The translations under genes and the position numbers were made by a program. DNA of 64,000 nt. Origin: Cyanidioschyzon merolae. Taxonomy: Eukaryota. Location: the NCBI GenBank assembly GCA_000091205.1, contig AP006502.2; one strand, written 5' to 3'. Below are positions 1-41,445 of the stretch, in pieces. Position 1 is the first letter of the stretch, and each line of letters opens with the position of its first letter. A model generated the notes under the pieces. The model was given only the letters and a program-made list of their open reading frames with translations, did no database searches and was not told the origin of the DNA.

Positions 1-238
1 GAACCGACACGTCAACGCCGCCGTCAATATCGGAAGAAATGTGGTACTAAAGAAGAGACCCAAGGAGCTGGCGCGAACCAACTTTGTGCGGCGACCTCTT
101 ATAATCGAAGTTCACAAACAGAGGCTTAAGCCGATAGCAGGCGTCGGGTTGAAATATGCTGGGAAGCATCTGCGGGTAGTTGTTAATTTACCCACGGTCG
201 CGACACTTTTTCGCTCCGTCGAGCAGTACCAACGATAG
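1..238 (+). mobile_element. TnpB/Fanzor-like nuclease C-terminal remnant (RuvC-III region), truncated by window start
   Basis: Reading frame from nt 2 gives N-R-H-V-N-A-A-V-N-I-G-R-N-V-V-L-K-K-R-P-K-E-L-A-R-T-N-F-V-R-R-P-L. It is collinear with E-F-V-K-R-D-L-N-A-A-I-N-I-R-R-C-A-L-L-K-T-R-P-A-E-L-T-R-S-K-F-M-G-Q-P-L at 12506-12718 and with the 48845-49219 copy. The catalytic Asp is replaced by His (RH instead of RD). Confidence 0.45.
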
Positions 239-4377: not shown

Positions 4378-5856
4378 TAGCGCGACGCAAACAGTGCAGG
4401 CAACAGCTGCTGCAGCGAGCTAGAGCACTCGCGACTGCGCATCGAGGTAGCCCCAACCTAGAAAACCGCACAGAACGTCGCGCCACACACACTGAGCCAG
4501 AGAAAACGCAGCCTCAGAGCTGTACCGCCCTGTGTCCGCACACCAGCTGCTAGGTCCGCTGCAGCGCGTTGCCCCGCGCCTTACCGTAGCCGTCCGATAA
4601 ACGCGCTCGCCGCCAGACGCGCACAAGAAGCCCAAGTCCTCAAGGTGCCGACGTGCGCTTCGCGCTGCTGCTCTGTCTGATTGTTCGCACCGGATACCGG
4701 TGTCAACACTAGCGCTTCGCAATATACCTCCGTGTGAAGACGAACAGCTCCCGACAACTCGCCTCGACTAGCAGTCCAACGTCCACACACATCCAATACA
4801 CTTCACCGCACACAGGTACAGTAATTGGTACGCGTACGTGTCGCGTCTCCCGCCGTGCTCCCCTCGAGGGCAGCGCTTGCATGCGCGCGCTACCGCACGA
4901 TGGACGCGATGCGTTCCTGATCTGCTAGCGTTGCGTCTTGCAGAACGGCTGGCTCACAGCTGGTGGCGAGTCTCGCCACGCAGTGCGATGGGATCCAGGA
5001 GATGCGCATCCGGTGCGCTCGCGTTCTCGAGCGCTGCCGCCTCGGAACGCCGAACCGGGACACACACATCGACTGCGCACGCATTGGAATATTGGTGTAG
5101 GGAACTCTCGTGCGTGTATGCGCATGCAAGAGGCGGTGCCCCGCCGTGGCTATTCATTTACCCTGTCGATGGAAATGCTTTTTTCCGAATGCAGATTTTT
5201 TGTCGGTAATGCACGATAGTGACGCGTGCTGCTTCCCGATTGGATTCGTCGTGACTGCATACCGCGGTGATAAGAAAGTGATGGTGTAGGTATGGAACGT
5301 ACGCGGAGCGCTCTGATGCAACAAAACCTAATTTCATCCACAGGATAGCCGTGATAGATGTCCGGCCTGTAATGGACTGTACCAATGTTTTGTTGCGGGC
5401 ACAGAAGGAGCACTGTGTAGAGTCTCTATGCGAAAGGGTTTCAGTTTTCTCTGGCAGGTTCCAAAGAATTCGGGAGTTTTTGATAAGGTAAACGATCGCG
5501 ATTTGAGATCATCGCAGTCAGTTGGCAGACACCGCACAATGTCAAGCGTATTTCAGAACCGATGCGAAAATCTTCGGAAGATCACTGTACGTCCAGGAGT
5601 CCAGCGCCCTCAAACTAATGTTTTCTGCGGCCCGATCTGCGCTGACAGAGTCTCTTCTCTCAAACGTGCGTGAATGCAAATGCTTCATGCGCAATGCTGT
5701 TTCGGTCAGTATTCTACGCCAAGTTTCCGTGATTCCAATGCTATTACACGATCTTGTTCCCCGAAATTGGCAACAGAATTATCGCATTTACAGTAACTGA
5801 ACATAATCCTGCTCAATATACCCAACTAACTCCCTTGAAAGCATGCAAACGCACTC

Positions 5857-9885: not shown

Positions 9886-11966
9886 GGCACGCTTCCAGCG
9901 CAACAGAGAACCGCCCGCGTATTGACTGCTACGAAGTTCTTTGGCCGTGGAACGCCCGCGGTACTTAAACACAATTTGGCCCCACCGCTGCGTGGAATCG
10001 AGTGCTTGTCCAAAGCGAGGAGCAAGCGATCGAAATTATTATGCAACGTACACTAAAGATCTTAGGCGAGATCCCTGTAACATAGGTTCTTTATTGGATA
10101 GCGAAGGAGGACTGCATTCCTCCTTCTGGTAAGTCATACGACAGTACTCGGATAGCTGAGGAACCCTGAAAGAGAAAAATACGTGCGCTCAGCGCCAAAA
10201 ACCGGATTCTCATAAACAGTTTTGGTTTTACAGTAGAAAACGACCCGTTGATCACAGTGCACAAAGCAAAAGTGACGACGGTAGCCACCAGGGGCGTCTC
10301 TTTTTCTCGACAGCTTGTTCATATAGTTCTGCAAGCACTAGGATATGGTCGCAAAAAGGGTCCAATTTCATGCACGGCCATCTTCCACTGAAATCGCAAG
10401 TACAGATTTCCTGGAACGAAGCGATTGGTTTGAAGCACGGAGAAGTCGCTTTGTTTTTTCAGTCGATTAGACGTCCTTCCGATGAAATGGTCGAAGCCAA
10501 GGTAGGTTCTCGCGGAGCAGAGAACACGTTCTATGTACAATAGATCTCGAGGAGAACGAAGACGTCATCATCGGTTCTAGCTGCAGTGGAGTCATTTGGC
10601 GGCCTCAGTTTCGCTCGCAGAGAATGCTCGTCCACGAGTGCCGACTTTATCGAATCGTTGAAGACTTTTTCCCTGATGTCTGACAATGCCCTTCTGTTTG
10701 AAAATGCGATATTTCACCATTCCCTTTGTGTTCGACGTTTTCCAGACTCTATCGGGGAGTAGAACTGCTTCTCATACCTCCGAAAGCTCAGTGTTTCAAC
10801 CGCATCGAAAGAGTGTTTGCTATCGTGATATGTAATGATCGCTCCTCTGAGAGAATCCCTGAAGTACTTTGCACGGTGACACCAGGACATGCGTCGTTGT
10901 TGTTCCGCAAGTGCTTCTCCCTCTGAAAAGATCCTCATCTATGGGCAAAAAGAAGTGAGTTCATTTTCAAAAATAGAAAAATGAAGGAAAGTTATGGATA
11001 TGTAAGTCGAAGATACTGGAGGCCCGGCGTTGCCGGGATCCAACAAACGAAAAGAGTGCCGAGCCCAGAGGAACAGGAAAAGACGAAGAAGCAAAAGGGG
11101 CGCTAGATGTCGAGAGCGACACGATAGGGGACACTACGACGAGATTGTACTGAAAGCCTATCTTGTACGCCATATCAAGGATTCGCACTATCAAAAATTA
11201 AAAAAGCCATCAGAAACCGTAGCCCGTCCAACTCCAGATTCGTCGACGAAGAGACATCACCCAGGAGCACGAATGGAGATTCTGTGATCCGTGCTGTTCT
11301 GGGGCTTATCAACCCAACAGAAAATGTATCAGAGATATAAAATGGTGCTATCCCCTCATCCTGCTCTATTTCGTGTTCCTGAACCGAGAACTACAACGCA
11401 AGAAGGAGATGGAGCCGTGTGGGAAAAAATCAAGAGTCGTTGGAACGGAAGGCTTTCCTAATGGATAAGCGCTTCAACGTCGTTCCGTTATGCAACATCA
11501 AGTGGCACGTTGTGGCAACCATCGCAAGCGTCCTTTACGGCATCATGGAGATCTGTCCGGAGTTCGATGTAAGCAGGGATGAATTTACGGGTGAAAACAG
11601 GGAAACTCTTTGGAAGCGCACCTTCGATTTCAAACGTCTCAACACGAGCAAGTGAAAGGTATGCTCGGGGACGATCGAAAGCGATGGGGTATCTAAATGT
11701 GGACACTATTGGCACTTTAAATTGGATCGTTCTATTTTGTCTTCGGCTTCGCCCCCGCCGAAACGTGAAGACACAAGGAGATGGATCCTGCAACGCAGGA
11801 GGTGCAGGAGAACGACTTTGTCATCGGCGTGGAGCCCTGAAATACGAATGTCATGACCATCGCTGCTCCCATGCGTGAGGAAGATGGCACTGACGGCAAC
11901 TTACGACAAAAAGACATCCGTCTTTTAAAGTTCTCAAGAACGAGATATTATTGAGAATCGGGAATT

Positions 11967-12760
11967 ATGAATGCATGGAAAAAAAGTGAGGCATGGAGTG
12001 CAGGAGTGAAGGAGCATCGGGAAGCGATCAGCCGGGTGACGAGCCGCGGAGCGCACTTTCAAACTTCTCGTGAATTCATGAAAATTCGCGCTGCTCATGT
12101 CGCGGAGCTGTGGAGAGAGTATACAAAGTCCCGGTGGGCTCGTCAGCATATGAATCTGTATTGCTGGAAACAGCGTGCATTCGCAAAATTCTTCAATGCG
12201 TTGTGCGCTCTCACAGTTGATAAGAGTCAAAGGCTCGAAATAGCATAAACGCAGGGCCCTGTGTGCCCAGAAAAAGGAGCACACAAGCTTTGTCGAAATG
12301 AACATTCATGGATGGCACCCAGTGTCTTGTTCCGGTACGGATAGATGAATTCCGAACGTCATACGTGCACCATGAGCTGGGGTGTACAATTCAGAAGGTC
12401 GAGATGGAGCGAAGGCAGAGGAGCCCTGATGAGATAGAAAAGTACGGAGAGCTGAAAGATCATCGAACGGCGCAGAGGGCGCGAGTTCGAGGAATCCCTG
12501 CGTGAATGAGTTCCACCGGAGGCAATAAGCCAATGGAGTTCGTGAAGCGAGACTTAAACGCCGCGATCAATATCAGAAGATGTGCCCTGCTGAAGACGAG
12601 ACCTGCAGAGCTGACGCGATCCAAGTTTATGGGGCAGCCCCTTATGCCCGATACGTGCAGGAAGCAGCTGAAGCTGATGGCAGGGAGCCGATCAGAAAAG
12701 GCCGGGAGGCGCCTGTGAGGGGGTGTGAATTTACCCCACATGGTCCTGGGACATTTTTTC
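11967..12760 (+). mobile_element. TnpB/Fanzor-like nuclease C-terminal half, frameshifted (pseudogene); 3' end abuts inverted-repeat arm
   Basis: Three consecutive plus-strand ORFs in different frames carry the TnpB motifs in order. The first is W-A-R-Q-H-M-N-L-Y-C-W-K (the W...L.YK motif). The second is V-P-V-R-I-D-E-F-R-T-S-Y-V-H-H-E-L-G-C (the E/TSxxC motif). The third is E-F-V-K-R-D-L-N-A-A-I-N-I-R-R-C (RuvC-III). The zinc-ribbon cysteines are mostly lost. About 45 bp after the stop is still homologous to the 49220-49305 copy. Confidence 0.45.
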
Positions 12761-12789
12761 TTTTACTGAGGATACTATATTTGTTTCAA

Positions 12790-14118
12790 ATTAAAATGGT
12801 CCGTTAAGCTGCGCGCACTGTTTCTGCACTTCGATTTTTCCGAACACTTTTCGATATACAGCCTCATCATCCAATGTACTGCGACCGGGGGCTCCGCTTC
12901 ATCTGTTCTTTAGGGCTCTCTGTCGTCATCTCGAAGTGTCGACTCCGGCTCCGTGCCGCTGGAGCTCGTTCAGCCACACCAACTGGGATGGTTCGCGGCG
13001 CCCCACGGGCAAGAGTTCGTGAAAGTACTGATATCACAACTTAATTTTTACTTAAGAGCTTCCACTCTATTTCTTTCCCCGACTTGCGCCATGCTCAAAT
13101 CACGCACTCTCCGAATTTCGATCTCTCTGTTGCAAGGCAACTCGTGGGTTCAGCACTGAGCGCCGTTCCAGTGACGATGAAAACAACTCGACGTCGTTCC
13201 TCGACGGCTTGTTCACAAGCCCAGGCCGCGAGTTCACTGGACTTGTCATCCCAAATAATCGACTCTGTCCGAAGGATGAAAACTCCTCTCTTTGTGGCAA
13301 TGGATGAAATGGCACCCAACGGCAGCATGACACCTCTCGAGTGTTCTCCGGGGGGCCCCCGAATCTTCTGTCTGCGTGGAAAAGAATCTTGTTCTAAGAC
13401 TTGAATCATCGCAGCGATCGCCTCCAGTGGACAGTGCGTCTCAGTTGTGCACGAGGACGGAACAGACTGATCGAAATATCTGGATGTGTTCCCAATCTTG
13501 GGCTTTTTTCAGGTACTTATTTCAACATGGAAAGCATCGCGCACCACCAATCCTCGACTGAAATGGAACAGCGAGCGCTTGCGCGTGCAGCTGCCAGAGT
13601 GCTCGCGTGCGGGACTACTCAGGGAAAGCGCGTGAGCGTAGCGCACGGCACAGGGCGCAGGACCGGAGGGCATCTACGGGAGCCGCCGGCGCTCGTCAAG
13701 CGCATTCACCGGGCGACAAAGCAAGCGCGCATGTACCACGGGGCGGCGCTTGGCGGATTAGGCGTTGTGGACATTCGTGAGGACCTGAGCGCAGTCACCT
13801 ACCACCGCTATGTGGGCGCATTAAAGTTGAACAGAAAAAGGGTGAAAATGCGAAGCAAAGGCTTGATTGCAACCTTCGTCTGTACATGAAATACGTAGAA
13901 AACAAGAGGAAGCGGCGAAATCGTGGCTGTAACGTTGCCATCAACATCCCTCGACTGCTGGCAACAGAGCTGGACGGATAGGAGAGCACGACGTATTGAA
14001 GGCTGGAGATAAGAGCGGGGAGAAGAACCAGTCACAGAAAAAGCCCGCGCTGGCTGGCGTTGGTGGCATCGGGAAGAGATCCGAAGCTGGGTTGATTCGC
14101 CCTCGTCAGCCGAGTGCA
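12790..14118. repeat. Inverted repeat A, left arm (~1.33 kb), partner 17338-18666
   Basis: Every ORF in 12953-14120 has a mirror ORF of identical translation in 17335-18502, with coordinate sums of 31455-31456. Examples are 13401-13889(+) = 17566-18054(-) and 13095-13409(-) = 18046-18360(+). DNA identity runs from attaaaatggtccgttaagctgcgcgcactg to ccgagtgc. Confidence 0.9.
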
Positions 14119-14266
14119 ATCTTTCAATTTTTTGTCTCGCATGGTAAGGGGCTGTGTGGAGCGGCGAAGAAATGAGAGACGCTTCGTGACGCGCCCCGTT
14201 GCCTACAGTGCTAGGCGAATTATGCAGCCGCATACGCGCGATTTGTGAGCAAACATGCCCGTACAT
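13808..14266 (-). pseudogene. Divergent TnpB/Fanzor-like C-terminal remnant (RDVDGNVTATI sub-family) at inner edge of IR-A left arm
   Basis: The ORF reads ...HSADEGESTQLRISSRCHQRQ...LSVQLCCQQSRDVDGNVTATISPLPLVFYVFHVQ. The pattern D-E-x-x-S-T then C-H...C-C then R-D-x-D-x-N-V-T-A-T-I parallels the E-x-x-T-S / Cys / DxDxNAAxNI order of the TnpB C-terminus. Identical mirror copy at 17204-17647(+). A third, more decayed copy lies at 29555-29700. Confidence 0.3.
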
Positions 14267-15683: not shown

Positions 15684-16097
15684 CTAGACGTTGAAGGACT
15701 CACCACAGCCGCAGGTTCCCTTCGCATTCGGGTTCCGGAAAACAAACTCACTGGCCAGGTCGTTTTCAACGTAATCCATTTCTGTGCCAACTACGTGAAG
15801 CATAGCTCTTGGGTCTACGAGTACTCGAACCCTCCCGTCCGCAGAAACGACTTCCTCTTCGAAACGTCTCCTCTCCTTCGCGTAGTCGAGCTGGTAAGAC
15901 AGCCCATTGCAGCCGCGCTGCTTCAGGGACAGTCGAACACCGTAAGACTCGGGATGTTTTTCGAGAAGGGACCGCAAACGCTTCGCTGCGGCTTCCGTTA
16001 TAGTCATAGCGGCTCTGCTGCGACACATGGTCAGAAACAGTTGTGTGGAAATCAAAACTTTGATTGCAATCTTTCGCTTCGCTTCCGGATATGACAC
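15684..16097 (-). CDS. ISCA: Iron-sulfur cluster assembly protein IscA/HesB (A-type carrier), probably organellar
   Basis: ITEAAAKRLRSLL...RLSLKQRGCNGLSYQLDY...RVLVDP...VGTEMDYVENDLASEFVFRNPNAKGTCGCGESFNV carries the three conserved Cys. The N-terminus is basic and presequence-like. Confidence 0.8.
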   Translation of the reverse strand: MSYPEAKRKIAIKVLISTQLFLTMCRSRAAMTITEAAAKRLRSLLEKHPESYGVRLSLKQRGCNGLSYQLDYAKERRRFEEEVVSADGRVRVLVDPRAMLHVVGTEMDYVENDLASEFVFRNPNAKGTCGCGESFNV

Positions 16098-17110
16098 GTC
16101 GTCGCCTCGTCACGTTCAGCAAGGCTTGTACCATTGTACCCACATATGAGTGCTTCAACCGGTGCACTTACTGTAATTTTCGAAAAGATGCTTCGGGTTG
16201 GATATCACTCTCCAAGGCGGCTGAGATTGCGCGAACTAACCGGGACGCTGGAGCAACGGAAGCTCTCGTTCTTTCCGGAGAAGTCCACCCAAAAAGTTCC
16301 CTCAGGAGGCACTGGATAGCACACACTGTCGAAATCTGCAAAGTTGCCATCCAGAATGGCTTGCTGCCGCACGTAAACGTAGGACCACTCAGCTGGGGTG
16401 AAATGAAAGAGCTCACAAAGTTCAGCGTGAGTATGGGTCTGATGTTGGAACAAGTCACAGATAAGTTAATGGCAAGCGTGCACCGAAGAGCACCTTCGAA
16501 AGACCCCTCACTTCGCATCGAACAGTTGCATCTTGCGGGTCAGCTGAAGATACCTTTCACAACAGGAATTCTTGTCGGTCTCGGAGAAGAAGAATGTGAT
16601 TGGAAAACCTCCCTGAATTGTATAGCAGCGGTGCACAACAAATACGGGCATATCCAAGAATGCATCATACAGCCCTTTCGTCCTGGTGATCGTGGTTACA
16701 TTTCGGGCCCGAAATTGAATGCATTCCATAGCGAGGCCCTTCCGTATGTTGTGTCACTCGCTCGCAAGATACTACCGACAGAAATCGCTATACAGATTCC
16801 ACCGAATTTAGTACTGTCTGATACAGACCGCCGAAAGGGACTAGAGCTCGTGTTCCGGTGCCTCGAAGCAGGGGCGTCCGATCTCGGAGGTATTTCCCCT
16901 GTCGATGAAGTTAATCCGACCTATGCGTTTCCTAGTATTACATGGCTGAGAGAAGTTCTTTTACTAGAGGGGTTCGAGCTTATGCACCGTTTGCCTATCT
17001 ATGAGCAATATATTCCATGGATTCAGAAAGCAGAGAAATTCGAACATCTTCAAAGACTCTTTCCCGTATACAAGCAAGGCAACTCAGCCAAATCAACCCC
17101 GAAATCGTGA
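16064..17110 (+). CDS. Radical-SAM enzyme, CofG-like (FO synthase subunit 1 family)
   Basis: N-terminal cluster motif VPTYECFNRCTYCNF (CxxxCxYCxF). Also GATEALVLSGEVHP and NGLLPHVNVGPLSWGEMKELTKFSVSMGLMLEQV (the G.LPH.N.G...E...naSmGlMLE block). The 348-aa length is typical of CofG. Confidence 0.55.
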   Translation: MQSFASLPDMTRRRLVTFSKACTIVPTYECFNRCTYCNFRKDASGWISLSKAAEIARTNRDAGATEALVLSGEVHPKSSLRRHWIAHTVEICKVAIQNGLLPHVNVGPLSWGEMKELTKFSVSMGLMLEQVTDKLMASVHRRAPSKDPSLRIEQLHLAGQLKIPFTTGILVGLGEEECDWKTSLNCIAAVHNKYGHIQECIIQPFRPGDRGYISGPKLNAFHSEALPYVVSLARKILPTEIAIQIPPNLVLSDTDRRKGLELVFRCLEAGASDLGGISPVDEVNPTYAFPSITWLREVLLLEGFELMHRLPIYEQYIPWIQKAEKFEHLQRLFPVYKQGNSAKSTPKS

Positions 17111-18695: not shown

Positions 18696-19147
18696 CTAGC
18701 TGGAAGCGCGAAATTTGCGCGCGCGTTTGCATAGATTTTCGATCGCGATCTGAATTGTTCTCTTTATTTGGGAGCAATGTTTCATAACGTGCTTAGGCTC
18801 CTTACAAGTGTCGTGGCAGAAAACCGAACGGTCCAGTTCTGTTTGACGGGATTCTCGAACAACAATATCGCCGGAAGTTCGAGGGATTTGCATTCAGAAC
18901 AGAATATGTATTTCTTACGATTTCTTTGCTGGCAGCTTCGGGACCAGTGAGGTGGTTGGTTAATTCCAGTGAATCACTAATGTACAGCGAACCTTTATCG
19001 TTATATACTTGCACAGGAAAGCGTTTTCCTGTATTTACACTCGATTCACTAACCTCAATGGTTTGCTGTGCCATTCCATGCCAGAACCATGCTCCAGGCC
19101 AGAATACCATAAGTCTCATCTGGGTCAATTACTCTCTCTCACGGCAA
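18696..19147 (-). mobile_element. Degenerate TnpB/Fanzor-like C-terminal remnant flanking IR-A right arm (mirror position of 11967-12760)
   Basis: Minus-strand ORFs read ...F-R-R-Y-C-C-S-R-I-P / I-P-R-T-S-G-D-I-V-V...F-C-H-D-T-C...K-H-C-S-Q-I-K-R-T-I-Q-I-A-I-E-N-L-C-K-R-A-R-K-F. This shows RIxxRTS, Cys remnants about 36 aa on, then a K-R-x-I-x-I-A-I-x-N pattern equivalent to KRDLNAAINI. The match is at protein level only. The DNA is not alignable to the left copy. Confidence 0.3.
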
Positions 19148-19837
19148 TACTTTAGCGTTTCAGGAGAATGGATTGACTGAGTATTGAATGATTCCCTGGG
19201 AAGTTAACTCGACTCAAAGATGCTGAACGCTTCCAATGCACAAAACATTTCCGGACTTTGATCGAGGCGCTCACTTCTCGTTGCGGAGAATATTTGAGCG
19301 AATTTTTGCTGGTAGGAGCACACCCGAGCAAGTCTCTCACCTAGCTTTGCACTCCCATTTGACGTCTGCTCAGCTTGCTGGGGATCATCTGGTGAATCAG
19401 GCTCGTTTCACTTGTTTCCCCAGCAGCAATTTCAGTTTGCATTCTGCGCTCGTAATAAGTTTACGCCGCCTTGAATTCAATGGTGGTACTCGTAGAGAAT
19501 CATCTCTGCAATCAGTTCTCGCGCTCGTAGAAGGAACAGAAGAGCATCTTTGTACGCTATAACTCCAAGATCGTCACTGTCTACCTTCGAAACACAAGGC
19601 ATATCTGCCATTTCTTTTTTTGACTCCACTGAAGAAAAATGGCGAATGAACGCTTCCTGCATCCGTACAATCGACTGCATTGCGTTCCCCAGCGCAGGTC
19701 AACTAACCTCTAACGAAGATCGTCTTCAAGAGCCAGTTGGACTTTCAGGTCCTCTCTGGATCTAACCTCCACAGCATGCCACTCAGATGGATACGGTGCT
19801 CCAACCGTCGCTATCGGTTGTAACCCCGTCATTCCAA

Positions 19838-21152
19838 ACGTTCGTGTGCCTCCTGACGCCCATCATGCTTCACTCTAGTATAAAGCCCTCGAAAATTTGC
19901 ACACTATCATCTGGATTCTGTTCAACTCTTTCATTCCGCTCTCTTGATTTTGAGATAAGGCAACCGCGCGATGTATTTCTCTTCATTTATCTTGGACGGT
20001 TGAAAATCAGCATCGTTAGTTGAGTCAAGTTTAAGTTTCACAAAGTGCATGCAGCCTGGTCTTCCGTCGGTCTCCATTCTCCCTGCGTACTCCTTACGAT
20101 TTCCTGCCCTGTAAGGCGAAACGTCGAATCAGCTCTACCCATGATCTTCGGAAAGCTGTTCGAGTGACCCGTGCTCGCTGCCAGAGACCGGCCGTAGCCC
20201 ACTGAGTGGAACGTATAGTACAGAGGAGTCTGCTGTGATTAGTGGGCGTTGAAGTGACGAACGAGGGCCGCTTCGAGCAGACGCTTACGGAGTCGAGTGC
20301 ACCCGCATTGGTGGACGGAGTCTGCTTCGCTCTCGAGGGCTCTCTTGAGGCAAATATAATGGGGCGAGAGATGCAAGCAAGGCAGGTACCCCGTTAACGC
20401 CATGGTATGGATAAGACTTGTGCCGATCCTCTCGAGGGCTCTTTTGAGGCGAATATAATGGGGCGCGGAATGCAAGCAAGGCAGGTATCCCGTTGACACC
20501 ATCGTATGGATAAGACTTGTGCCGATCCTCTCGAGGGCTCTCTCGACGCGAATATAGTGGTGCGCGAATTGCAAGCAAGGCAGGTATCCCGTTGACGCCA
20601 TCGTATGGATAGGACGTGTGGCGATCCGAGTCCGAGATCCACTCGATAGGCGCGGGCGATCTGACGCGAGTCTCGCTCTCGGTGCGATATCGCTTCCGGC
20701 GTCGTTGGCACCTCGATCCCATCTGTCACCATCAGCTTGTCATTTGCCTCCTTCGGCACTCCAAGAAACCGTTCTATCAGTCACCACTTTTTTGGGCCAG
20801 TAAGGTGGCTAAAACGGTTCTAACTTCCAAACGGTGAACCGATTGAAGCACTCGAGATTGTCTCGCGTATCGTTTCATTTTTCAGGTTGATTCGATATTT
20901 TTCTCTTTCGTCATAGATATTCCGATTGCTGATGTGATTTCATGACGTACAAATGTTTTCTCGCAAGCGTGCGTGCAGATCTTGTATACTGCGATCAGGC
21001 CGTGTTTCACGTTCTGTCGCGAACGCTGGTAGAAGAACGAAGGATTTGTACAAAAATCCGTGTGGAATGAGGGCAGCTCGCAATGCGCATCCGGAACTTG
21101 CACGAGCATTTGCATGACGAGCTGTGCCATGGCAAGAGAAGCTATACTAGCC
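19838..21152. repeat. Inverted repeat B, left arm (~1.3 kb), partner 37853-39179
   Basis: ORFs 19787-20023(+), 20239-20601(-), 20285-20722(-), 20394-20759(-), 20616-20837(+) and the 3' part of 20882-21295(-) have near-identical mirror ORFs at 38982-39236(-), 38404-38967(+), 38283-38720(+), 38246-38611(+), 38202-38387(-) and 37874-38122(+). Confidence 0.9.
20331..20640. repeat. Tandem repeat, 99-bp unit x ~3.1 (mirror copy 38365-38674)
   Basis: The tctcgagggc landmark recurs at 20331, 20430 and 20529. Units are ~90% identical. The translated repeat STGYLPCLHSAPHYIRLKRALERIGTSLIHTM(V/A) appears in three frames. Confidence 0.85.
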
Positions 21153-22682
21153 TTCCTCGGGTAAAAGGCTACACAATATCTGATGGGGTCGTGCATGTCA
21201 CATGTAGGAAAATTCTTCCTGTTAAAATATTTTAGTCGGTTGGCTTCGCAGAGATTCCAGACCAAACGCTCCGACCAATTGTCTTTCCTGTGCATTCTTG
21301 TCTTACACTTGGTAGAATCTTTCTCTCCATTTTCTAGCAGTATTTCGCCTTCTCTTGCGCTCAGCTTGCTGGCTTCATTGTCGTCGGTAAACTCAACATC
21401 CGTTTTTCCGCCTGATTCATACGTACCGGATGGACGGTGAGATCAAGGCTCGCTTATTGTGAGTAAATAAGATTGCATCTTTTTTCCCACATATAACTTT
21501 ACATCATCTGTTCCCTAGCGACTTTGCCCATGGAATGGGATGTGCGTTTTGGTTCCCTCGCGCGCTCGCAAAGAGAAGCAATAGTTTGTTTCAGGACAAT
21601 AGAAAGAAGAGAATGATTTGTCTACGAGCGTTTTCACGAGCACGATAGACTCGTTCTCGCAGATGGCGTCTCACTATGTGAGACGAACATGCCCTTTGTG
21701 TGATAGAAATTCGCGTTTCAGTGCGAGATCGATAATATACAGTTAATCGTGCGACAATCTCACAATGTGGCGTAATTTTTTTGCTCATCCGTTTCTTTTC
21801 AATATCGTTCATATTAACGGTACATAAACTTCACATCACTTCTTTTCTTTGGTAGCTTTTCGTAGAGAACGTAGGGAATGGAATGGATCGATGGGGGAAG
21901 ACGCGTGTAGGTACAGTTTCGCAAATTCAGGCATGAGTGCATGACGTTCAGAACAAGGGCTAAACGAAGGGAAGCTCATCAACCTTTGAACCATAGAGCG
22001 ACTGACAGACGTAATGCCATTTTTCGCAGGCTCGTAGTGACAGCATACCCTCTCCCGAAACCTCTCTCCAGTTTGCAGGATGCATTTCATTTGTTGGTTA
22101 CGAGCGAGAAAATCAAAAATAAACAAAAAGAATGCGCTAGTCAATGTGCAACAGAACTCACTGTTCTGCGCACAACCACTCTGAGCGTAACGAACACGAT
22201 TCAATCGTGTAAAGCGTGTTTTCCGGGTGCTCCCACCATCGCACGATCTCATACCAAGTTACTTGAGGAGCGTACTTAATAGATCGTTTCCCCATACCCA
22301 GACACTGTCGTATGTCACAACGGCATACCAGTGCGCTTAGGAGTCAACTGACGACAAGTCAGGGAGTATACGCGAAGGGAGCCACACCGAGTGGCTCAAA
22401 ACCGGCTCCCGCGCCAATGCGCGTAGCTCTTGTACAATGGCTGCATAACCGCTTTTCATAGAAAACCAAAATGAAACCTAAGGCGTGTTGCAGCGACCAG
22501 CAAATCATCAATACTTTTTGGGCCGATTGGCGAGGGCGACTCCATCGACCGTTACACGAATCTCCGAGGCGGCGGATCCGCGACGCCTGCGGCTGCGATT
22601 TTATCTTCTAAATAATTTCGCATCCGCACAGTTCTAGCTCACAGTTGCCGATAGTAGTTTCCGGCTCCTTAGTTTCGTTTAG

Positions 22683-34371: not shown

Positions 34372-34555
34372 CGCTCAGTGAAACCCAGTATCTCAACTAT
34401 GCCAGCCGCGTCTTGTTCTCTGCTGGAATGGGACGGATCCGAGCTTGCGCGGCATCAATAGCAACGTGACAGTATGTCCCTGGACCACGGAGGATGGAAT
34501 CGCACCGTCATGCGCCTCATCATTCTTTATAGCCTTTAAGCTCAGTTGTGTTCGA

Positions 34556-35307
34556 CCCTTGGATGAGTATAATGAAATGGTATTTCGCTGGTTATAGAAG
34601 ATGCGTTCGAAGAGTGCTAATTTTCAAAACTAAAAAATCGAGGGGAAAGGTAAGGACACGGAAGTCGGGGATCCTGGAGTCCCAGTATCGCCAGGTGCCG
34701 GAAAAGAAACAAAAAATCTTCTTCTCGTCGACAATGGATCCAAGAAGAGCAAGTGACAATGAAGAAGAGGAGGGTAGATAGGCGAGAAAAGGTGCTTGCG
34801 CGGTGGGGCCACGGCGAGATTGTAGTGGCGCCGATGGGTCGTCTTCTAAGAATCAATGCAAAGGTGACTTCAATCAGCTGTAGAGCATTCAAGGAGTTTG
34901 TGAACCGCGACTTCAACACCACCATCAATGTCAGATGGAGCGTGATGCGGAAGTCTCGGTTCATGGACTCCATGATTGGTTGCCTCTGGTTGAAATCATC
35001 AATTCAAGGATTACTAGAACTCGTCTCATCGGCGCCCCTACAATCTCGCCGTGGCCCCACCGCGCAAGCACCTTTTCTCGCCTATCTACCCTCCTCTTCT
35101 TCATTGTCACTTGCTCTTCTTGGATCCATTGTCGACGAGAAGAAGATTTTTTGTTTCTTTTCCGGCACCTGGCGATACTGGGACTCCAGGATCCCCGACT
35201 TCCGTGTCCTTACCTTTCCCCTCGATTTTTTAGTTTTGAAAATTAGCACTCTTCGAACGCATCTTCTATAACCAGCGAAATACCATTTCATTATACTCAT
35301 CCAAGGG
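34556..35307. repeat. Foldback palindrome built from a TnpB/Fanzor-like 3' fragment
   Basis: ORF 34548-34781(+) = 35082-35318(-), 34630-34812(-) = 35051-35233(+), and the C-terminus of 34617-34973(-) = the C-terminus of 34935-35246(+). The arms (34556-34842 and 35021-35307) encode G-I-L-E-S-Q...F-S-S-T-M-D-P-R-R-A-S-D-N-E-E-E-E-G, homologous to the 48858-48990 copy. The 178-bp spacer (34843-35020) encodes A-F-K-E-F-V-N-R-D-F-N-T-T-I-N-V-R. Confidence 0.6.
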
Positions 35308-35488
35308 TGGAACACCACTGAGGTGAGAGACTATAATCTAACTCTCAGTTACCGTGATTGCTCTCATGCCACAAATGGATAGACCTGGAGAAGCCCGTAC
35401 TACAGTTGGACGGCGCACGAATCTACCAACTCAGCACCCGCGCTGTTCCGATTTGTGCTGACGAATTGGGCGGGAAAGATGAAACAGT

Positions 35489-36094: not shown

Positions 36095-37852
36095 CTTTGT
36101 TTTTCCCGTCGCCGCTATCTGGAAAGAGTCACTCAGGGCAACCTCTTGCTGGCGGCGGCCCGATTTTTGCGTCACATGATGGGCAACTAGCGAGCCGGTC
36201 AAGAGTTGAATCACAGCAACGATTGCCTGTTATTTAATGAGTGGTACATATAGCCTCAACTGCTTGGTATAACCTTTCCATTGTTTCGGAGAATCAGGTT
36301 CGTTCAACGCAGGCTCGGTTCCGGATAATTTCACAGATCAGAATCGAGCAGATAGCATCATGAATTTTCTTCCACAAAATGACTGGCATTAGGATCATTA
36401 TAACCGACGCAAAACATAAACTCCGTTAATCCTATCTCAAAATCGTAGCAGTGAGTTCCGGAAACCTTGGCTTGAGTACCATTGTTCTGAATGTGCTTTT
36501 TCTCATGGATATGAAACAAACTAAGACGTCCTGTAAATTAGAGAAATGTAGCGGCAAGCCTCTATTCTCTGACTTGTCGCTCACGAGAAAAAATACCTTT
36601 CATGTGTCATTCAGTCATTACTACGTTCAGCAGCTGGATGAATCGCCTTTCTTGCAGCGCTTGTCCTGAACTTCGTGCATCCAAAACAGAATGTCTGAAT
36701 GTTTCTCTATGCGACCGTTTCTCCATGTATCTATTCCACCACAAGCGTTCTCGAGGTGATATCTTCACAAACGTTGCAGGATGTCAGCCTTCGGTAGCAC
36801 TGATACAAGCGATGATGAAGAGGCATGCGTGGGCAAAAATAGAAGAGCCCTGCTATTGGAAACACTCGCAAGTTGTACAAAACATTATTGATTTCGAACT
36901 GAAACGCAAACGGCTTTTGCAGAAAAGTCTGGTGCTCGCCTCACTGGATTAGACATCATCCGGGAAAAACGGTAAACCTATATAAGGAAAATGATAGAGG
37001 GGCGAACAACTGTTCGAAAAGAAGGCAAAAGCGAGCATTAAGAGAAAATCAGCCCCAGCAGAAATGCAATCGTGTTATTGCCCTCTAATCAGCAATCGAA
37101 CTGGATCGTTGGATACCTCACCCAGCGTGGTAACACTCTTCATGATCTGCTCTTCGCACCCTCTTCTGTCATTCTCCGAGACAACTTCGCCGTACATCTT
37201 TGAAAAGCGAGAGGAGAGAACGATACTCAGATTGGCACTGAGCTACTCTTCGTGCCAGGATATACCCCTGGTTCAATGCAGGAGAGGCGTATATTTAAGT
37301 GCCAGACGCGGTCTTAACGGACATGGATCCATGGAAGAATCATTAGCATCCATGTCTTTGTTCGTTGAGAAATCGTTCTCTGCCATCGCAAGCCTTAAAC
37401 TGATATGTTCCTTTTCCTACCGTGTGCGGGAGGGAGCGGAGTGGCGCTTCGGATTGTAACACGTGCTCGCTACGAAGGAAGTGACCAAAATGTACTCGAG
37501 AAATAAAAAGTACATATCCAGGAAAAGTGACCTTCGCACTGATCATCCCCGAAATGCGTCCGATCCGCGAGGAATAGACCTGGTATGGAGTATAGCAATA
37601 GCATGGAAATCGCCATACCCAGCAAGGGGAAAATACGAGGAAAGAGAAGGGGATGCATCAACCAGACAAAGTAGAGAATTGTACCCCGAAACAAGCACAA
37701 ATAACGACAGGACAAAAACTATAGAAGTGGAAAGATCAGTCCAAAATCGCTGCAAAGGCATAAACACTAATATACATGAACAGGAAGAGAATTCCAGAAA
37801 CTGAAATTCGGAGCACCAGTAAGGATCATATAACTTCGTTTTCGAGGAGGGC

Positions 37853-39179
37853 TCTCATAGCTTTTCTCTTACCGTGGCACAGCTCGTCATGCAAATGCTC
37901 GTGCAAGTTCCGGATGCGCATTGCGAGCTGCCCTCATTCCACACGGATTTTTGGACAAATCCTTCGTTCTTCTACCAGCGTTCGCGACAGAACGTGAAAC
38001 ACGGCCTGATCGCAGTATACAAGATCTGCACGCACGCTTGCGAGAAAACATTTGTACGTCATGAAATCACATCAGCAATCGGAATATCCATGACGAAAGA
38101 GAAAAATATCGAATCAACCTGAAAAATGAAACGATACGCGAGACAATCTCGAGTGCTTCAATCGGTTCACCGTTTGGAAGTTAGAACCGTTTTAACCTAC
38201 CTTACTGGCCTAAAAAAGTGGTGACTGATAGAACGGTTTCTTGGAGTGCCGAAGGAGGCAAATGACAAGCTGATGGTGACAGATGGGATCGAGGTGCCAA
38301 CGACGCCGGAAGCGATATCGCACCGAGAGCGAGACTCGCGTCAGATCGCCCGCGCCTATCGAGTGGATCTCGGACTCGGATCGCCACACGTCCTATCCAT
38401 ACGATGGCGTCAACGGGATACCTGCCTTGCTTGCGATTCGCGCACCACTATATTCGCGTCGAGAGAGCCCTCGAGAGGATCGGCACAAGTCTTATCCATA
38501 CGATGGTGTCAACGGGATACCTGCCTTGCTTGCATTCCGCGCCCCATTATATTCGCCTCAAAAGAGCCCTCGAGAGGATCGGCACAAGTCTTATCCATAC
38601 CATGGCGTTAACGGGGTACCTGCCTTGCTTGCATCTCTCGCCCCATTATATTTGCCTCAAGGGAGCCCTCGAGAGCGAAGCAGACTCCGTCCACCAATGC
38701 GGGTGCACTCGACTCCGTAAGCGTCTGTTCGAAGCGGCCCTCATTCGTCACTTCAACGCCCACTTATCACTGCAGACTCCTCTGTACTATACGTTCCACT
38801 CAGTGGGCTACGGCCGGTCTCTGGCAGCGAGCACGGGTCACTCGAACAGCTTTCCGAAGATCATGGGTAGAGCTGATTCGACGTTTCGCCTTACAGGGCA
38901 GGAAATCGTAAGGAGTACGCAGGGAGAATGGAGACCGACGGAAGACCAGGCTGCATGCACTTTGTGAAACTTAAACTTGACTCAACTAACGATGCTGATT
39001 TTCAACCGTCCAAGATAAATGAAGAGAAACACATCGCGCGGTTGCCTTATCTCAAAATCAAGAGAGCGGAATGAAAGAGTTGAACAGAATCCAGATGATA
39101 GTGTGCAAATTTTCGAGGGCTTTATACTAGAGTGAAGCATGATGGGCGTCAGGAGGCACACGAACGTTTGGAATGACGG
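37853..39179. repeat. Inverted repeat B, right arm
   Basis: Reverse complement of 19838-21152. Includes the 99-bp tandem array at 38365-38674. Confidence 0.9.
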
Positions 39180-41445
39180 CGTCAGGGCCCAAATCAATGC
39201 CTTTAGCACCGCATCGAAGAGACTAATGCTTTGCACGGTTATTCAGAGAGTCCATCAGCGTCCAACAGGCGCATGCGGACGATCCTTGGAAGGTGCACAT
39301 GAGACAGCGCTAGCGTGATCATCAGTACCGATTATAGGGAAGCATGAAACACGCATTAACCAACTTTTTAAATGAATTCGAAAAGCAAGTATCTGGTAAG
39401 TCGCGTCGTTTGGTGGAAACCTACGAAGTTGTACAAGCTATAGAACGCAAAAACTGTACTTGCTCTCCTTCGACGAGGGCGTACAACGAGTGCAAGATTC
39501 GATTCTGAAAGATTCACTCCGATGCATTCAGAAAGACATACAGTCTTCACGAGCACGGGTGCGCGTTGAATCTGGTAGACACGAAAAAGAGAAACTGAGA
39601 CGGATGCGCTTGCCGATGTACAGCAAGCTGAACGATCCTCAGATCGATAGAAAATCGAGCGTGAGAGGTTTTCTACGGTTTGAATCCACTCGCAACCATG
39701 CGCACAAGCAGTTTCCGAACGGAGACTCGAATGCTTCGATCAACATCCGGCGACCTTGTGCTTCCGGAGCGTCCAGTGGCCTTTTGCAGAAGGGTCCTGC
39801 ATTGGTATCCCCTAGTACTCATTGTGGGCATTGGGATGAGACGCGGAAGACTTGCGGTTAAACAAAATTCGATGGCCTGGACACATGGGATTCGATTCTC
39901 CCACTGAGCGAGGCAAATGTATGGCGCAGTTCAGCAGTATGGAATGGCAGGTGCGTAGAATATACAGAACGCAAGAGATATCCTTGCGCAATCGGTGAAC
40001 GATAACTATGCTGGATTATTCGATATTGCTGATTATACTGAACGCCTCGCTTGATGTGGCAGGAACTTTACAATTTTGGAAACGCACTCGGGCTTTCGTA
40101 TGCTGCGCTTTGCTTGGATCCAAAAATTGTAAGCACTGATAAATGAGACTGCTCTCTCGAGGTGCGTCGATCAAATGCGCATCTACGAGCATGCTCCAGG
40201 TATCTCCTCTCGCCCCGGAACGGCACAGCTCTGATTTTTAGCAGCGCGATTTACGTGGAGATCAGGTTTTGTTTCCGGGCTCGTAGTGCTCTGCGAAATG
40301 TCCTCTTACGTAAGGTTTTAAATGCTATTCAGAGGGAGCAGCTTCCATGAGAAGCGATGCGCGTAGACTCTCATGGACATGTTCGTAGCCTTTTTTAATG
40401 ACGCAGAATCCCATTGGACGAGATCCATTGGGAAGAGAGAGTCCACTAGCTCATTTCGTGGACCAAAACGAGCTTTCTTTTTGATAAATGCAGACAGAGC
40501 TGCATAGCGTACGTTGTGCGAGGCGCTGCCCTGTTTTTGAGCCACTGGGTGAGGCATCGGTGCTTCATTTACGCTTTTATCGCAAAGACATCAACAAACG
40601 ATATTTCACACAACTTTTGATTCAGTCCACATCAGGAGAAGACGACCAGTTTGCTCATTCGCGCATTTCGATGACTGGCCAACTTCAGCGGCTGGCGTCC
40701 ACACGCGACCACCGACCGTTTCACTGGCAGGTTTTCTACAATGAGACCATCCCTTGGAGAGGACAACACCCGTCGGACTTCAGCGTAAGGGCGTTTGCTC
40801 TGTAAGCCATTCGCACCTTGCCCCATGCTCACTGCAAGGAGCAACGTCCCAACCTAATATGCAGTGTATCAATTTTCATTTGACCAGCACTTTGCGTACC
40901 CGTGCATTAAACCTTCCAAACGTCCTTTTGAAATTGTAGTTTTGATACAGAGAGCAAGACTCGCGAACACGCGAAAGCTGTATATAAAAAATTGTACCGA
41001 GTAACGCTATCCGTGGTGCATCAAATTTCCAATTTTTCCAGAAACATTTCCCTGCAAAACGCATATTGTCGGTGAGAGGGTGATAAATCTCACCAGAGTC
41101 CCTCGGACACGAGAATACTGCTGTTATCCCCTTGGAAAGGGTTTCAAACTACCCTAGCAAGGTCAGCTTTCCATCTGGTCCACATCAGTTCTGCTATCGG
41201 GCGTGGCAGCACGGTCAGTCTAATAACTGCAGAGATTCCCGAACTACATTCTTCTGTCATCTGCTTCCCTTGTATCGGATTTATATATGGACTGGAATCA
41301 AGTGCCCCAATGATCACTCGATCGAACTCGCCCATGCCGACCGCATCAAGGCGCTGTGTTTGCGCGCCCTGGGGGCCTGCATTTGGTAGAAGCGCGGCAC
41401 CTTGAAAACTCAGCTTCGCGCGTTTTTGCTCAAGGCTTTCGACTG

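Follow-up and report, generated by a model that had tools for sequence, protein, structure and literature searches.

What are the scattered 3' ends of a TnpB/Fanzor-like nuclease that appear at positions 11967-12760 and elsewhere in this DNA: products of separate truncations, non-autonomous derivatives that still carry a guide RNA, or old decay products? [quoted passage not shown] Scans of the whole window for tRNAs and Rfam families gave no match. With a probability of roughly 0.88, we read the window as a stretch of C. merolae 10D chromosome with seven dead copies of CMe-1A, a transposable element that encodes Fanzor1, two of which (copies D and F) come from one internal-deletion derivative. 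The organism, the family membership, the anatomy of the copies, the common junction and the lesions are all shown by the data. Together the family copies cover about 16% of the window (summed copy extents); all seven are dead, none could make a nuclease, and their decay looks neutral. They are as follows.

Copy A, 1 to 190, plus strand: 3'-terminal part of a Fanzor1 element interrupted by the start of the window, with a non-coding tail to about 240.
Y-up, about 9950 to 10952, plus strand: alternative 5' region of about 1 kb attached to copy B (blastn).
Copy B, 10953 to 12770, plus strand: near-full-length Fanzor1 pseudogene that contains 11967-12760 (HMM, nhmmer, translation).
Copy C, 19155 to 21340, minus strand: long and heavily decayed copy of a second subfamily (tblastn and HMM).
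Copy D, 34527 to 35338: palindrome of 811 bp, formed by two partial copies of the short derivative in inverted orientation (self-match and nhmmer).
Copy E, 37843 to 39844, plus strand: long decayed copy of the subfamily of C (tblastn and HMM).
Copy F, 48726 to 49322, plus strand: complete short derivative of about 600 bp (nhmmer and alignment).
Copy G, 50236 to 51119, plus strand: separate internal-deletion derivative of the C/E subfamily (tblastn and HMM).

A pseudo-protein rebuilt from positions 11440-12718 of copy B had 144 protein matches, with E values down to 1e-142 and identities of 48-58%. The 37 matches of at least 400 residues were used to build a family HMM of 731 positions, which was run on the six-frame translation of the window and matched at 2-115, 11066-12652, 19185-21340 (minus strand), 34867-34962, 38877-39759, 49004-49201 and 50559-51038. 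The pieces at 1-238, 11967-12760 and 48840-49305 scored E values of 1e-7 to 3e-46, far above chance. An exhaustive profile search retrieved 2599 relatives at E <= 1e-3, many of them of 600-700 residues. When the translated window fragments and six close relatives were scanned against Pfam, there was no TnpB-related match, and a narrow profile of 17 close relatives gave chance matches only against PDB sequences, so the assignment to Fanzor1 rests on a broader profile of 77 full-length relatives. This profile matched the solved structures of Parasitella PpFz1 (9cf0, 1.4e-21), Spizellomyces SpuFz1 (8gkh, 1.1e-14) and Guillardia GtFz1 (9cer, 1.4e-10), with vdEFrTS aligned opposite IDEFRTS and nRDlNAA opposite NRDQAA, and 19 of the 77 relatives also matched PF07282 (the Cas12f1-like TNB domain, best E = 2e-8). 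Judged by this wider sequence profile, the family can be placed in Fanzor1. The claim that decayed TnpB/Fanzor homologues sit in this eukaryote thus stands, and the profile check suggested for it was blank for the fragments in direct Pfam scans but positive for the family as a whole.

The DPG aspartate, the DEFRTS glutamate and the RuvC-III R-D-x-N do not vary among the 77 relatives and give a family-level catalytic triad of D398, E569 and D636 (numbering of the relative P0058), positions that correspond to D383, E541 and D606 of SpuFz1 (PMC10432273). PpFz1, SpuFz1 and GtFz1 share with the family the RuvC-I DPG, the Glu in (I/V)DEFRTS, the RuvC-III NRDxNAAxN and a helical N-terminal half, with profile E values of 1e-21 to 1e-10; the identity between the solved proteins and the Cyanidioschyzon clade is too low for detection with a single sequence or a narrow profile. 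The AlphaFold2 model of P0058, built on a 20-sequence alignment, had a mean pLDDT of 50.3, with the RuvC half below 50, too poor there to serve as evidence of the fold. DUF8286 is the sole precomputed Pfam label of the clade proteins, and with a DUF-only label and blank fragment scans, annotation pipelines will keep missing the family. One difference concerns the zinc ribbon, as PpFz1 has a CxxC ribbon (SSFCPKC) after DEFRTS, whereas the Cyanidioschyzon clade reads SYTHHELGC and has no CxxC. The clade sequence here, VDEFRTSYTHHELGC, is found also in copies with long open frames and in the consensus; as these too have no CxxC, the absent cysteines are a trait of the whole clade and not an inactivating lesion.

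Three of the seven copies (B, C and E) are long pseudogenes. The protein-HMM pieces of copy B span HMM positions 18-721, and at the nucleotide level its homology to the family core begins at 10953, with 10953-11236 and 11238-12715 corresponding to element-HMM positions 260-550 and 960-2553 (nhmmer). Positions 551-959 are missing, which represents an internal deletion of about 136 codons. The coordinates of the HMM pieces and the translations reveal at least five frameshifts and at least four in-frame stops. A match to the central region of the family, MDKRFNVVPLCNIKWH, lies at about 11440, and a three-frame reading of 11700-13100 recovers the motifs AELWREYTKSRWARQ, RIDEFRTSYVHHELGC and EFVKRDLNAAINIRRC, with stops and frame changes between them. 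RuvC-I is mutated at about 11815, where FVIGVEP*NTNVMTIAAP stands against the family GADPGNTN (D to E, followed by a stop). DEFRTS remains readable, as does the RuvC-III EFVKRDLNAAINIRRC at about 12535 (RDLNAAINI), so that copy B keeps the Glu and the RuvC-III Asp of the triad. The coding remnant closes with a stop codon at 12716-12718; the 3' terminus, ...TTTTACTGA, follows at about 12769.

The 5' regions of the family are modular. The Y-up region in front of copy B has 67-71% identity by blastn to L055, L073, L052, L059, L045, L027, L047, L041 and L044, which belong to the set of related loci described below, and it precedes short derivatives in at least seven other loci, always joined at the same point. 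It may be the TE-N2_CMe-like 5' module of Bao & Jurka, who found the 5' 635 bp of CMe-1A also in another repeat, TE-N2_CMe (PMC3627910).

Copies C, E and G form a second, more diverged subfamily. In copy C, tblastn with P0058 and a further relative, P0171, placed residues 113-676 at 19155-21068, the HMM matched at 19185-19340, 20018-20128 and 21071-21340, and a degenerate RuvC-III, REVSASIKVRKC, is found at about 19185-19295. A minisatellite of 99 bp occupies 20330-20627, and over 19718-21159 the copy matches copy E, which has the opposite orientation, at 95.9% identity (self-blastn). Copy E covers residues 113-676 at 37936-39844 by tblastn, with HMM matches at 38877-39759 and the minisatellite at 38378-38675. 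In copy G, residues ~118-208 are fused to ~490-676; tblastn with the same two relatives matched 50236-50523 and 50547-51119 with E values down to 8e-24, and the HMM covers positions 540-701.

Copy A is a terminal piece only, with protein-HMM positions 686-723 at 2-115 (E = 1e-7) and element-HMM positions 2382-2572 at 1-190 (nhmmer, E = 1e-17). Copy F contains the 5' leader, about 60 N-terminal codons, a junction, the last ~83 codons with the RuvC-III motif (EFVNRDLNAASNIRRC at about 49085) and the 3' tail ending in ...TTTTACTGA; by nhmmer, 48726-48964 and 49017-49264 map to HMM positions 182-410 and 2303-2554. Copy D consists of two arms, 90% identical, joined tail-to-tail at about 34931 inside RuvC-III; each arm contains the 5' leader, some 60 codons of the N-terminal part and the junction before it ends in RuvC-III. 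Its nhmmer matches at 34527-34774 and 34857-34950 (HMM 176-412 and 2334-2430) are mirrored at 35100-35338 and 34949-35023, and the 3' terminus is lost altogether. The reading IEDAFEE in copy D is 5' leader sequence and not the DEFRTS block. Copy D lies 156 bp upstream of the start codon of eIF2B-beta. Contigs with the orthologous eIF2B locus, which agree with the window at 99.5-99.9% identity, mostly stop within the palindrome, and no empty site was recovered from them.

This anatomy departs in several ways from the earlier note, which had listed five loci, each with the three C-terminal blocks in order, 75-80% identical to one another and all truncated from the 5' side. Three of the listed loci (1-238, 11967-12760 and 48840-49305) are borne out by motifs and HMM. 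The third listed locus, 18696-19147, has no motif or HMM match on either strand and lies just 3' of copy C, which adjoins it, and 34556-35307 is no single ordered copy, as it falls in the palindrome of 34527-35338 with its two inverted partial copies. The count rises to seven with copies E (37843-39844) and G (50236-51119), which had been missed. Only copy B, and in degenerate form copy C, has all three blocks; RuvC-I, RuvC-II, the W-block and DEFRTS are deleted from D and F. DNA identity between window copies is 69-74%. General 5' truncation does not hold either: B, C and E are long, and what the short copies have lost is internal, with the 5' leader and some 60 N-terminal codons still in place. 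The flagged copy itself, supposed to be limited to its last ~250 codons, has HMM matches over 11066-12652, DNA homology from 10953 and Y-up from about 9950. As to inactivation, frameshifts and stops were found in B, frameshifts or stops in all short copies, and the Asp to His change in the copy at the window start (RuvC-III NRHVNAAVNI) was read directly, but the loss of zinc-ribbon cysteines, counted as a lesion, is the clade trait seen in open-frame relatives.

To place the window copies among their paralogues, we used 80 related loci from hot-spring metagenomes that contain a strain 99.5% identical to the window, as a proxy for a genome-wide sample. In these loci the focal copies, most of them pseudogenes, are near full length, and the median of their longest ORFs is 325 aa. 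The consensus built from 27 copies has a core of about 2.6 kb with an ORF of about 759 codons, a pairwise identity of about 0.8 and a sharp 3' boundary about 62 nt past the stop codon. Intact full-length copies, the object of another proposed check, were found only in part: the longest ORF, of 778 aa in L003, keeps DPG, DEFRTS and NRDFNAA and with them D/E/D, but most copies are pseudogenes.

Secondary copies in the flanks of the 80 loci, which had not been selected for, are with few exceptions short pieces reaching the normal 3' terminus. Mapped on copy B, the short pieces comprise the 5' leader and the first ~60 codons (to about 11040) and then resume at 12469-12475, as seen in L055, L045, L027, L006, L059, L047, L041 and copy F of the window, the last at 12469 as in five other loci. 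A multiple alignment of short copies reveals a single junction, in which ...GAGACTGTAGTGGCAC is followed directly by AGAGGGCACGAGTTCGAGG... and ...EMVVKA is fused to RRAKVRGLL..., common to copies D and F and at least eight other loci. Both arms of D and copy F also begin at the same 5' position, at HMM ~175-182 (nhmmer), and stops or frameshifts are present in all short copies. The suggestion that truncation points might cluster is thus confirmed, with the clustering seen at the junctions (12469-12475 in copy B coordinates).

Such 3' fragments could instead be independent 5' truncations, left by abortive, LINE-like reverse transcription or by deletions at random. The unselected copies nearly all end at HMM ~700-723 with apparent starts anywhere from 461 to 688, CMe-1A has neither terminal inverted repeats nor known target-site duplications (PMC3627910), and other forms do exist (G, L050 at 461-722 and L046 at 584-731), all of which would fit independent events. 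Against this, D, F and at least eight other loci have one and the same nucleotide-level junction together with the 5' leader and N-terminal codons, and the 3' terminus carries neither a poly(A) nor a simple-repeat tail. We consider independent truncation very improbable, and as the junction is common and the 5' leader and N-terminal codons are retained, D and F are not 5' truncations and a LINE-like origin is rejected for both. By their sequence, the short copies D and F descend instead from a single ORF-less internal-deletion derivative of about 600 bp. An ORF-less derivative that keeps both element ends and is present in many copies from one ancestor is what characterizes the ghost type of Fanzor derivative, and this is what we find.

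The next matter is whether the descendants of this internal-deletion derivative still hold a guide RNA. RNAalifold gave essentially no consensus structure for the last ~230 nt of 29 main-subfamily copies (-1.9 kcal/mol) or for 10 copies of the old subfamily to which A, B and F belong (-1.7 to 0 kcal/mol), and single-sequence folding z-scores of the A, B and F tails were about 0 (-0.05 to +0.5). Main-subfamily copies end in a hairpin of about 10 bp, GGCGTCGTTCGA-CTT-TCGAACGGCG or the variant AACGTTTTTC-TTTT-GAAAGACGTT, in which 75.7% of cells are paired and covariation, assessed by pair counting, is no better than in shuffles; the window subfamily (A, B and F) differs from it and ends in ...TTTTACTGA. 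For short copies compared pairwise, identity is 0.72 (5' leader), 0.64 (N-terminal remnant), 0.65 (C-terminal remnant) and 0.57 (3' UTR), and neither long nor short copies have a 3' end more conserved than the rest of the element. Neither RNA structure nor conservation gave any sign that a guide RNA survives in the window copies. Because of this, of the uniform identity and of the stops or frameshifts in all short copies, the window copies appear to be relics, in neutral decay, of a derivative that had multiplied in the past. The earlier proposal of guide-RNA-bearing non-autonomous derivatives is upheld as regards non-autonomous copies with one ORF-less ancestor, but not as regards the guide RNA.

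A more active role can be argued, in which the short copies would still be functional ghost loci, transcribed from the 5' leader and serving the few near-intact Fanzor1 nucleases elsewhere in the genome with guide RNA in trans. The short form retains exactly the two parts needed for this, the 5' leader and the last ~300 nt, and outnumbers long copies among the unselected flank copies; moreover, ghost loci of about 550 nt with working omega-RNAs are known for SpuFz1 (PMC10432273), long ORFs keeping D/E/D occur in related contigs (e.g., 778 aa in L003), and Nozaki reported the repeat family to be transcribed (PMC1955436). However, the identity of the 3' part in short copies (0.65 and 0.57) is not above that of the 5' part (0.64-0.72). 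The missing consensus RNA structure and the z-scores near 0 for A, B and F speak against function as well, as do the divergence of about 30-35% among short copies and the loss of the 3' terminus in D. We therefore regard functional ghost loci as unlikely and keep to the reading of the window copies as neutral relics. It is conceivable, although doubtful, that by analogy the short derivatives are the red-algal counterpart of ghost loci and that younger copies elsewhere would still supply guide RNAs in trans to near-intact CMe-1A nucleases.

Near-identical repeats, here called X, lie just after copies B, C and F and were considered as a target of guide-directed or site-specific insertion. This candidate was rejected, because the gaps after the Fanzor copies differ (20 nt, 43 nt and, by estimate, roughly 350-500 nt) and X is never found directly after the Fanzor 3' end in the 80 other loci.

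The Fanzor1 family of C. merolae has already been published for this same genome, so the finding is real yet already known, and the mere rediscovery of a published repeat family adds little. Bao & Jurka (2013, PMC3627910) list one Fanzor1 family for the alga, CMe-1A, with ~150 copies, each about 80% identical to a consensus of ~3 kb and some still intact, without terminal inverted repeats and with target-site duplications left undetermined. Nozaki (2007, PMC1955436) described an interspersed repeat of 3.2 kb in 253 copies, about 5% of the genome, with a truncated ORF resembling WSV486 of WSSV, and a WSSV protein was classed as Fanzor1 by Bao & Jurka (PMC3627910). The Nozaki repeat and CMe-1A are the same repeat, and the window copies are members of CMe-1A by organism, protein family, element size, divergence and copy number. 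At least 205 related stretches occur in the metagenomes with the near-identical strain mentioned above. CMe-1A and the window copies agree in organism, protein family, size (~3 kb), identity (~80%; 0.8 pairwise here), the lack of terminal inverted repeats, a modular 5' region common with another repeat and the predominance of pseudogenes with few long ORFs, and differ in nothing essential. The ~600-bp single-junction derivative, the palindromic copy and the diverged subfamily C/E/G are absent from both accounts (PMC3627910, PMC1955436).

From these data we propose the following history. The ancestral element would have been about 2.6-3 kb long and would have encoded a RuvC nuclease of ~760 residues of the TnpB/Cas12 lineage. 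To judge from the characterised Fanzor1 proteins, to which it is homologous, the guide of this nuclease was probably an RNA transcribed from the element's 3' end. An internal deletion would then have joined codon ~60 to codon ~640, creating the derivative of about 600 bp, which lost the nuclease, kept the 5' leader and the 3' end and multiplied, presumably mobilised in trans, to give rise to D and F. Copy G would have arisen as a separate internal-deletion derivative, and at present every window copy would be in neutral decay.

The closest parallel is in S. punctatus, where 134 ghost Spu-1 loci of about 550 nt have no ORF and keep a functional omega-RNA (Saito et al. 2023, PMC10432273). Both these ghosts and the C. 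merolae short copies are ORF-less and about 550-600 nt long, keep the element ends including the region that encodes, or in C. merolae would encode, the guide RNA, and outnumber the coding copies. Inverted repeats of 30 nt, good conservation and omega-RNAs of demonstrated function set the Spu-1 ghosts apart; the short copies of C. merolae have no inverted repeats, are ~35% diverged, show no RNA signal and retain about 60 codons from the N-terminal end and about 83 from the C-terminal end, which in the ancestor were fused in frame. A bacterial counterpart is offered by the PATEs, which Meers et al. reportedly described in 2023 as ORF-less derivatives of IS200/IS605. These too are said to be non-autonomous and to keep the transposon ends and the guide-RNA region of the TnpB element, but they occur in bacteria, are moved by the TnpA Y1 transposase and possess a TAM and defined subterminal hairpins, features of which none is established for CMe-1A. 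The single ORF-less ancestor of the short copies implies that ghost-type Fanzor derivatives are not peculiar to Spizellomyces.

The native role of Fanzor proteins could be well studied in a tractable alga with a handful of near-intact copies, and if ghost loci did supply guides, C. merolae would be a knockout system for the native role of a eukaryotic RNA-guided nuclease. Homologous recombination is efficient in C. merolae. A published account describes the alga as having no RNAi (PMC11376382). Its genome sequence is complete, at 16.5 Mb, with few intact Fanzor copies.

Besides the Fanzor1 copies, the window holds a second repeat family, here named X, which is about 1.3 kb long and has no clear ORF. 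Its copies are collinear though only 58-61% identical pairwise, and every one has the same sharp 5' end, ATTA(A/G)AAT...CTGC.CG..CTGT...TTTTCCGAAC. Six of the 80 metagenome loci also carry X-related sequences.

Copies of repeat family X in the window.
12790-14137, + strand, X copy
18665-17319, - strand, X copy
49361-50216, + strand, X copy
53493-~54800, + strand, X copy
30689-~29400, - strand, X copy
62122-~63430, + strand, X copy

Three decayed Fanzor copies have an X downstream in the same orientation, starting 20 nt past copy B, 43 nt past copy F (a short derivative), and a few hundred nucleotides past copy C. Two pairs of X are nearly identical, and the three X copies just mentioned all belong to them.

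Near-identical X pairs.
12790-14137 versus 18665-17319, inverted, 99.5% identical
49360-50216 versus 53492-54348, direct, 99.5% identical

The inverted pair encloses 3.2 kb, including a radical-SAM (CofH/FO-synthase-like) ORF at 16064-17110, while the direct pair encloses 3.3 kb with Fanzor copy G, an internal-deletion derivative, and an ORF at 51387-53387. As identity within both pairs is 99.5% and begins exactly at the 5' end of X, the sequences point to a recent duplication, gene conversion or recent mobility of X.

The long decayed Fanzor copies C and E, inverted and about 17 kb apart, are 95.9% identical across 1.44 kb (19718-21159 versus 39284-37843), whereas their 3' parts are far more diverged, which suggests partial gene conversion or partial duplication between two old copies. 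Within the decayed ORF of both lies a minisatellite of three units, 85-90% identical to each other, whose translation reads ...ESETRVRSPAPIEWISDSDRHTSYPYDGVNGIPALLA...

Minisatellites in the decayed Fanzor ORFs.
20330-20627, copy C, three units of 99 bp
38378-38675, copy E, three units of 99 bp

Comparison of 5' ends among the main-subfamily Fanzor copies (metagenome loci L002-L081) revealed a modular 5' side, with at least four different upstream blocks, each common to several copies, attached to a common core that starts near the GCGCTCGGTGAGCGC hairpin. Inverted pairs of short derivatives may be recurrent for this element, as they also occur in L007, L045 and L006, where the pair (5109-5273, - strand, and 5402-5587, + strand) is head-to-head, while the two copies forming palindrome D of the window are tail-to-tail. 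The 4.5-kb metagenome contig L090 (Ga0506604_002050) matches the window at 99.8% identity over eIF2B-beta and diverges completely from 32 nt upstream of its start codon (window 34403), 124 nt before palindrome D; past this point it codes for an 898-aa lysine-ketoglutarate reductase/saccharopine dehydrogenase. The divergence reflects a chimeric assembly or else a rearrangement adjoining the palindrome. Several other contigs simply terminate inside palindrome D.

Last, valyl-tRNA synthetase is encoded in two neighbouring ORFs on the same strand (45202-46881 and 47032-48405), a split that could represent a frameshift or an intron, the latter being a rarity in the C. merolae genome.
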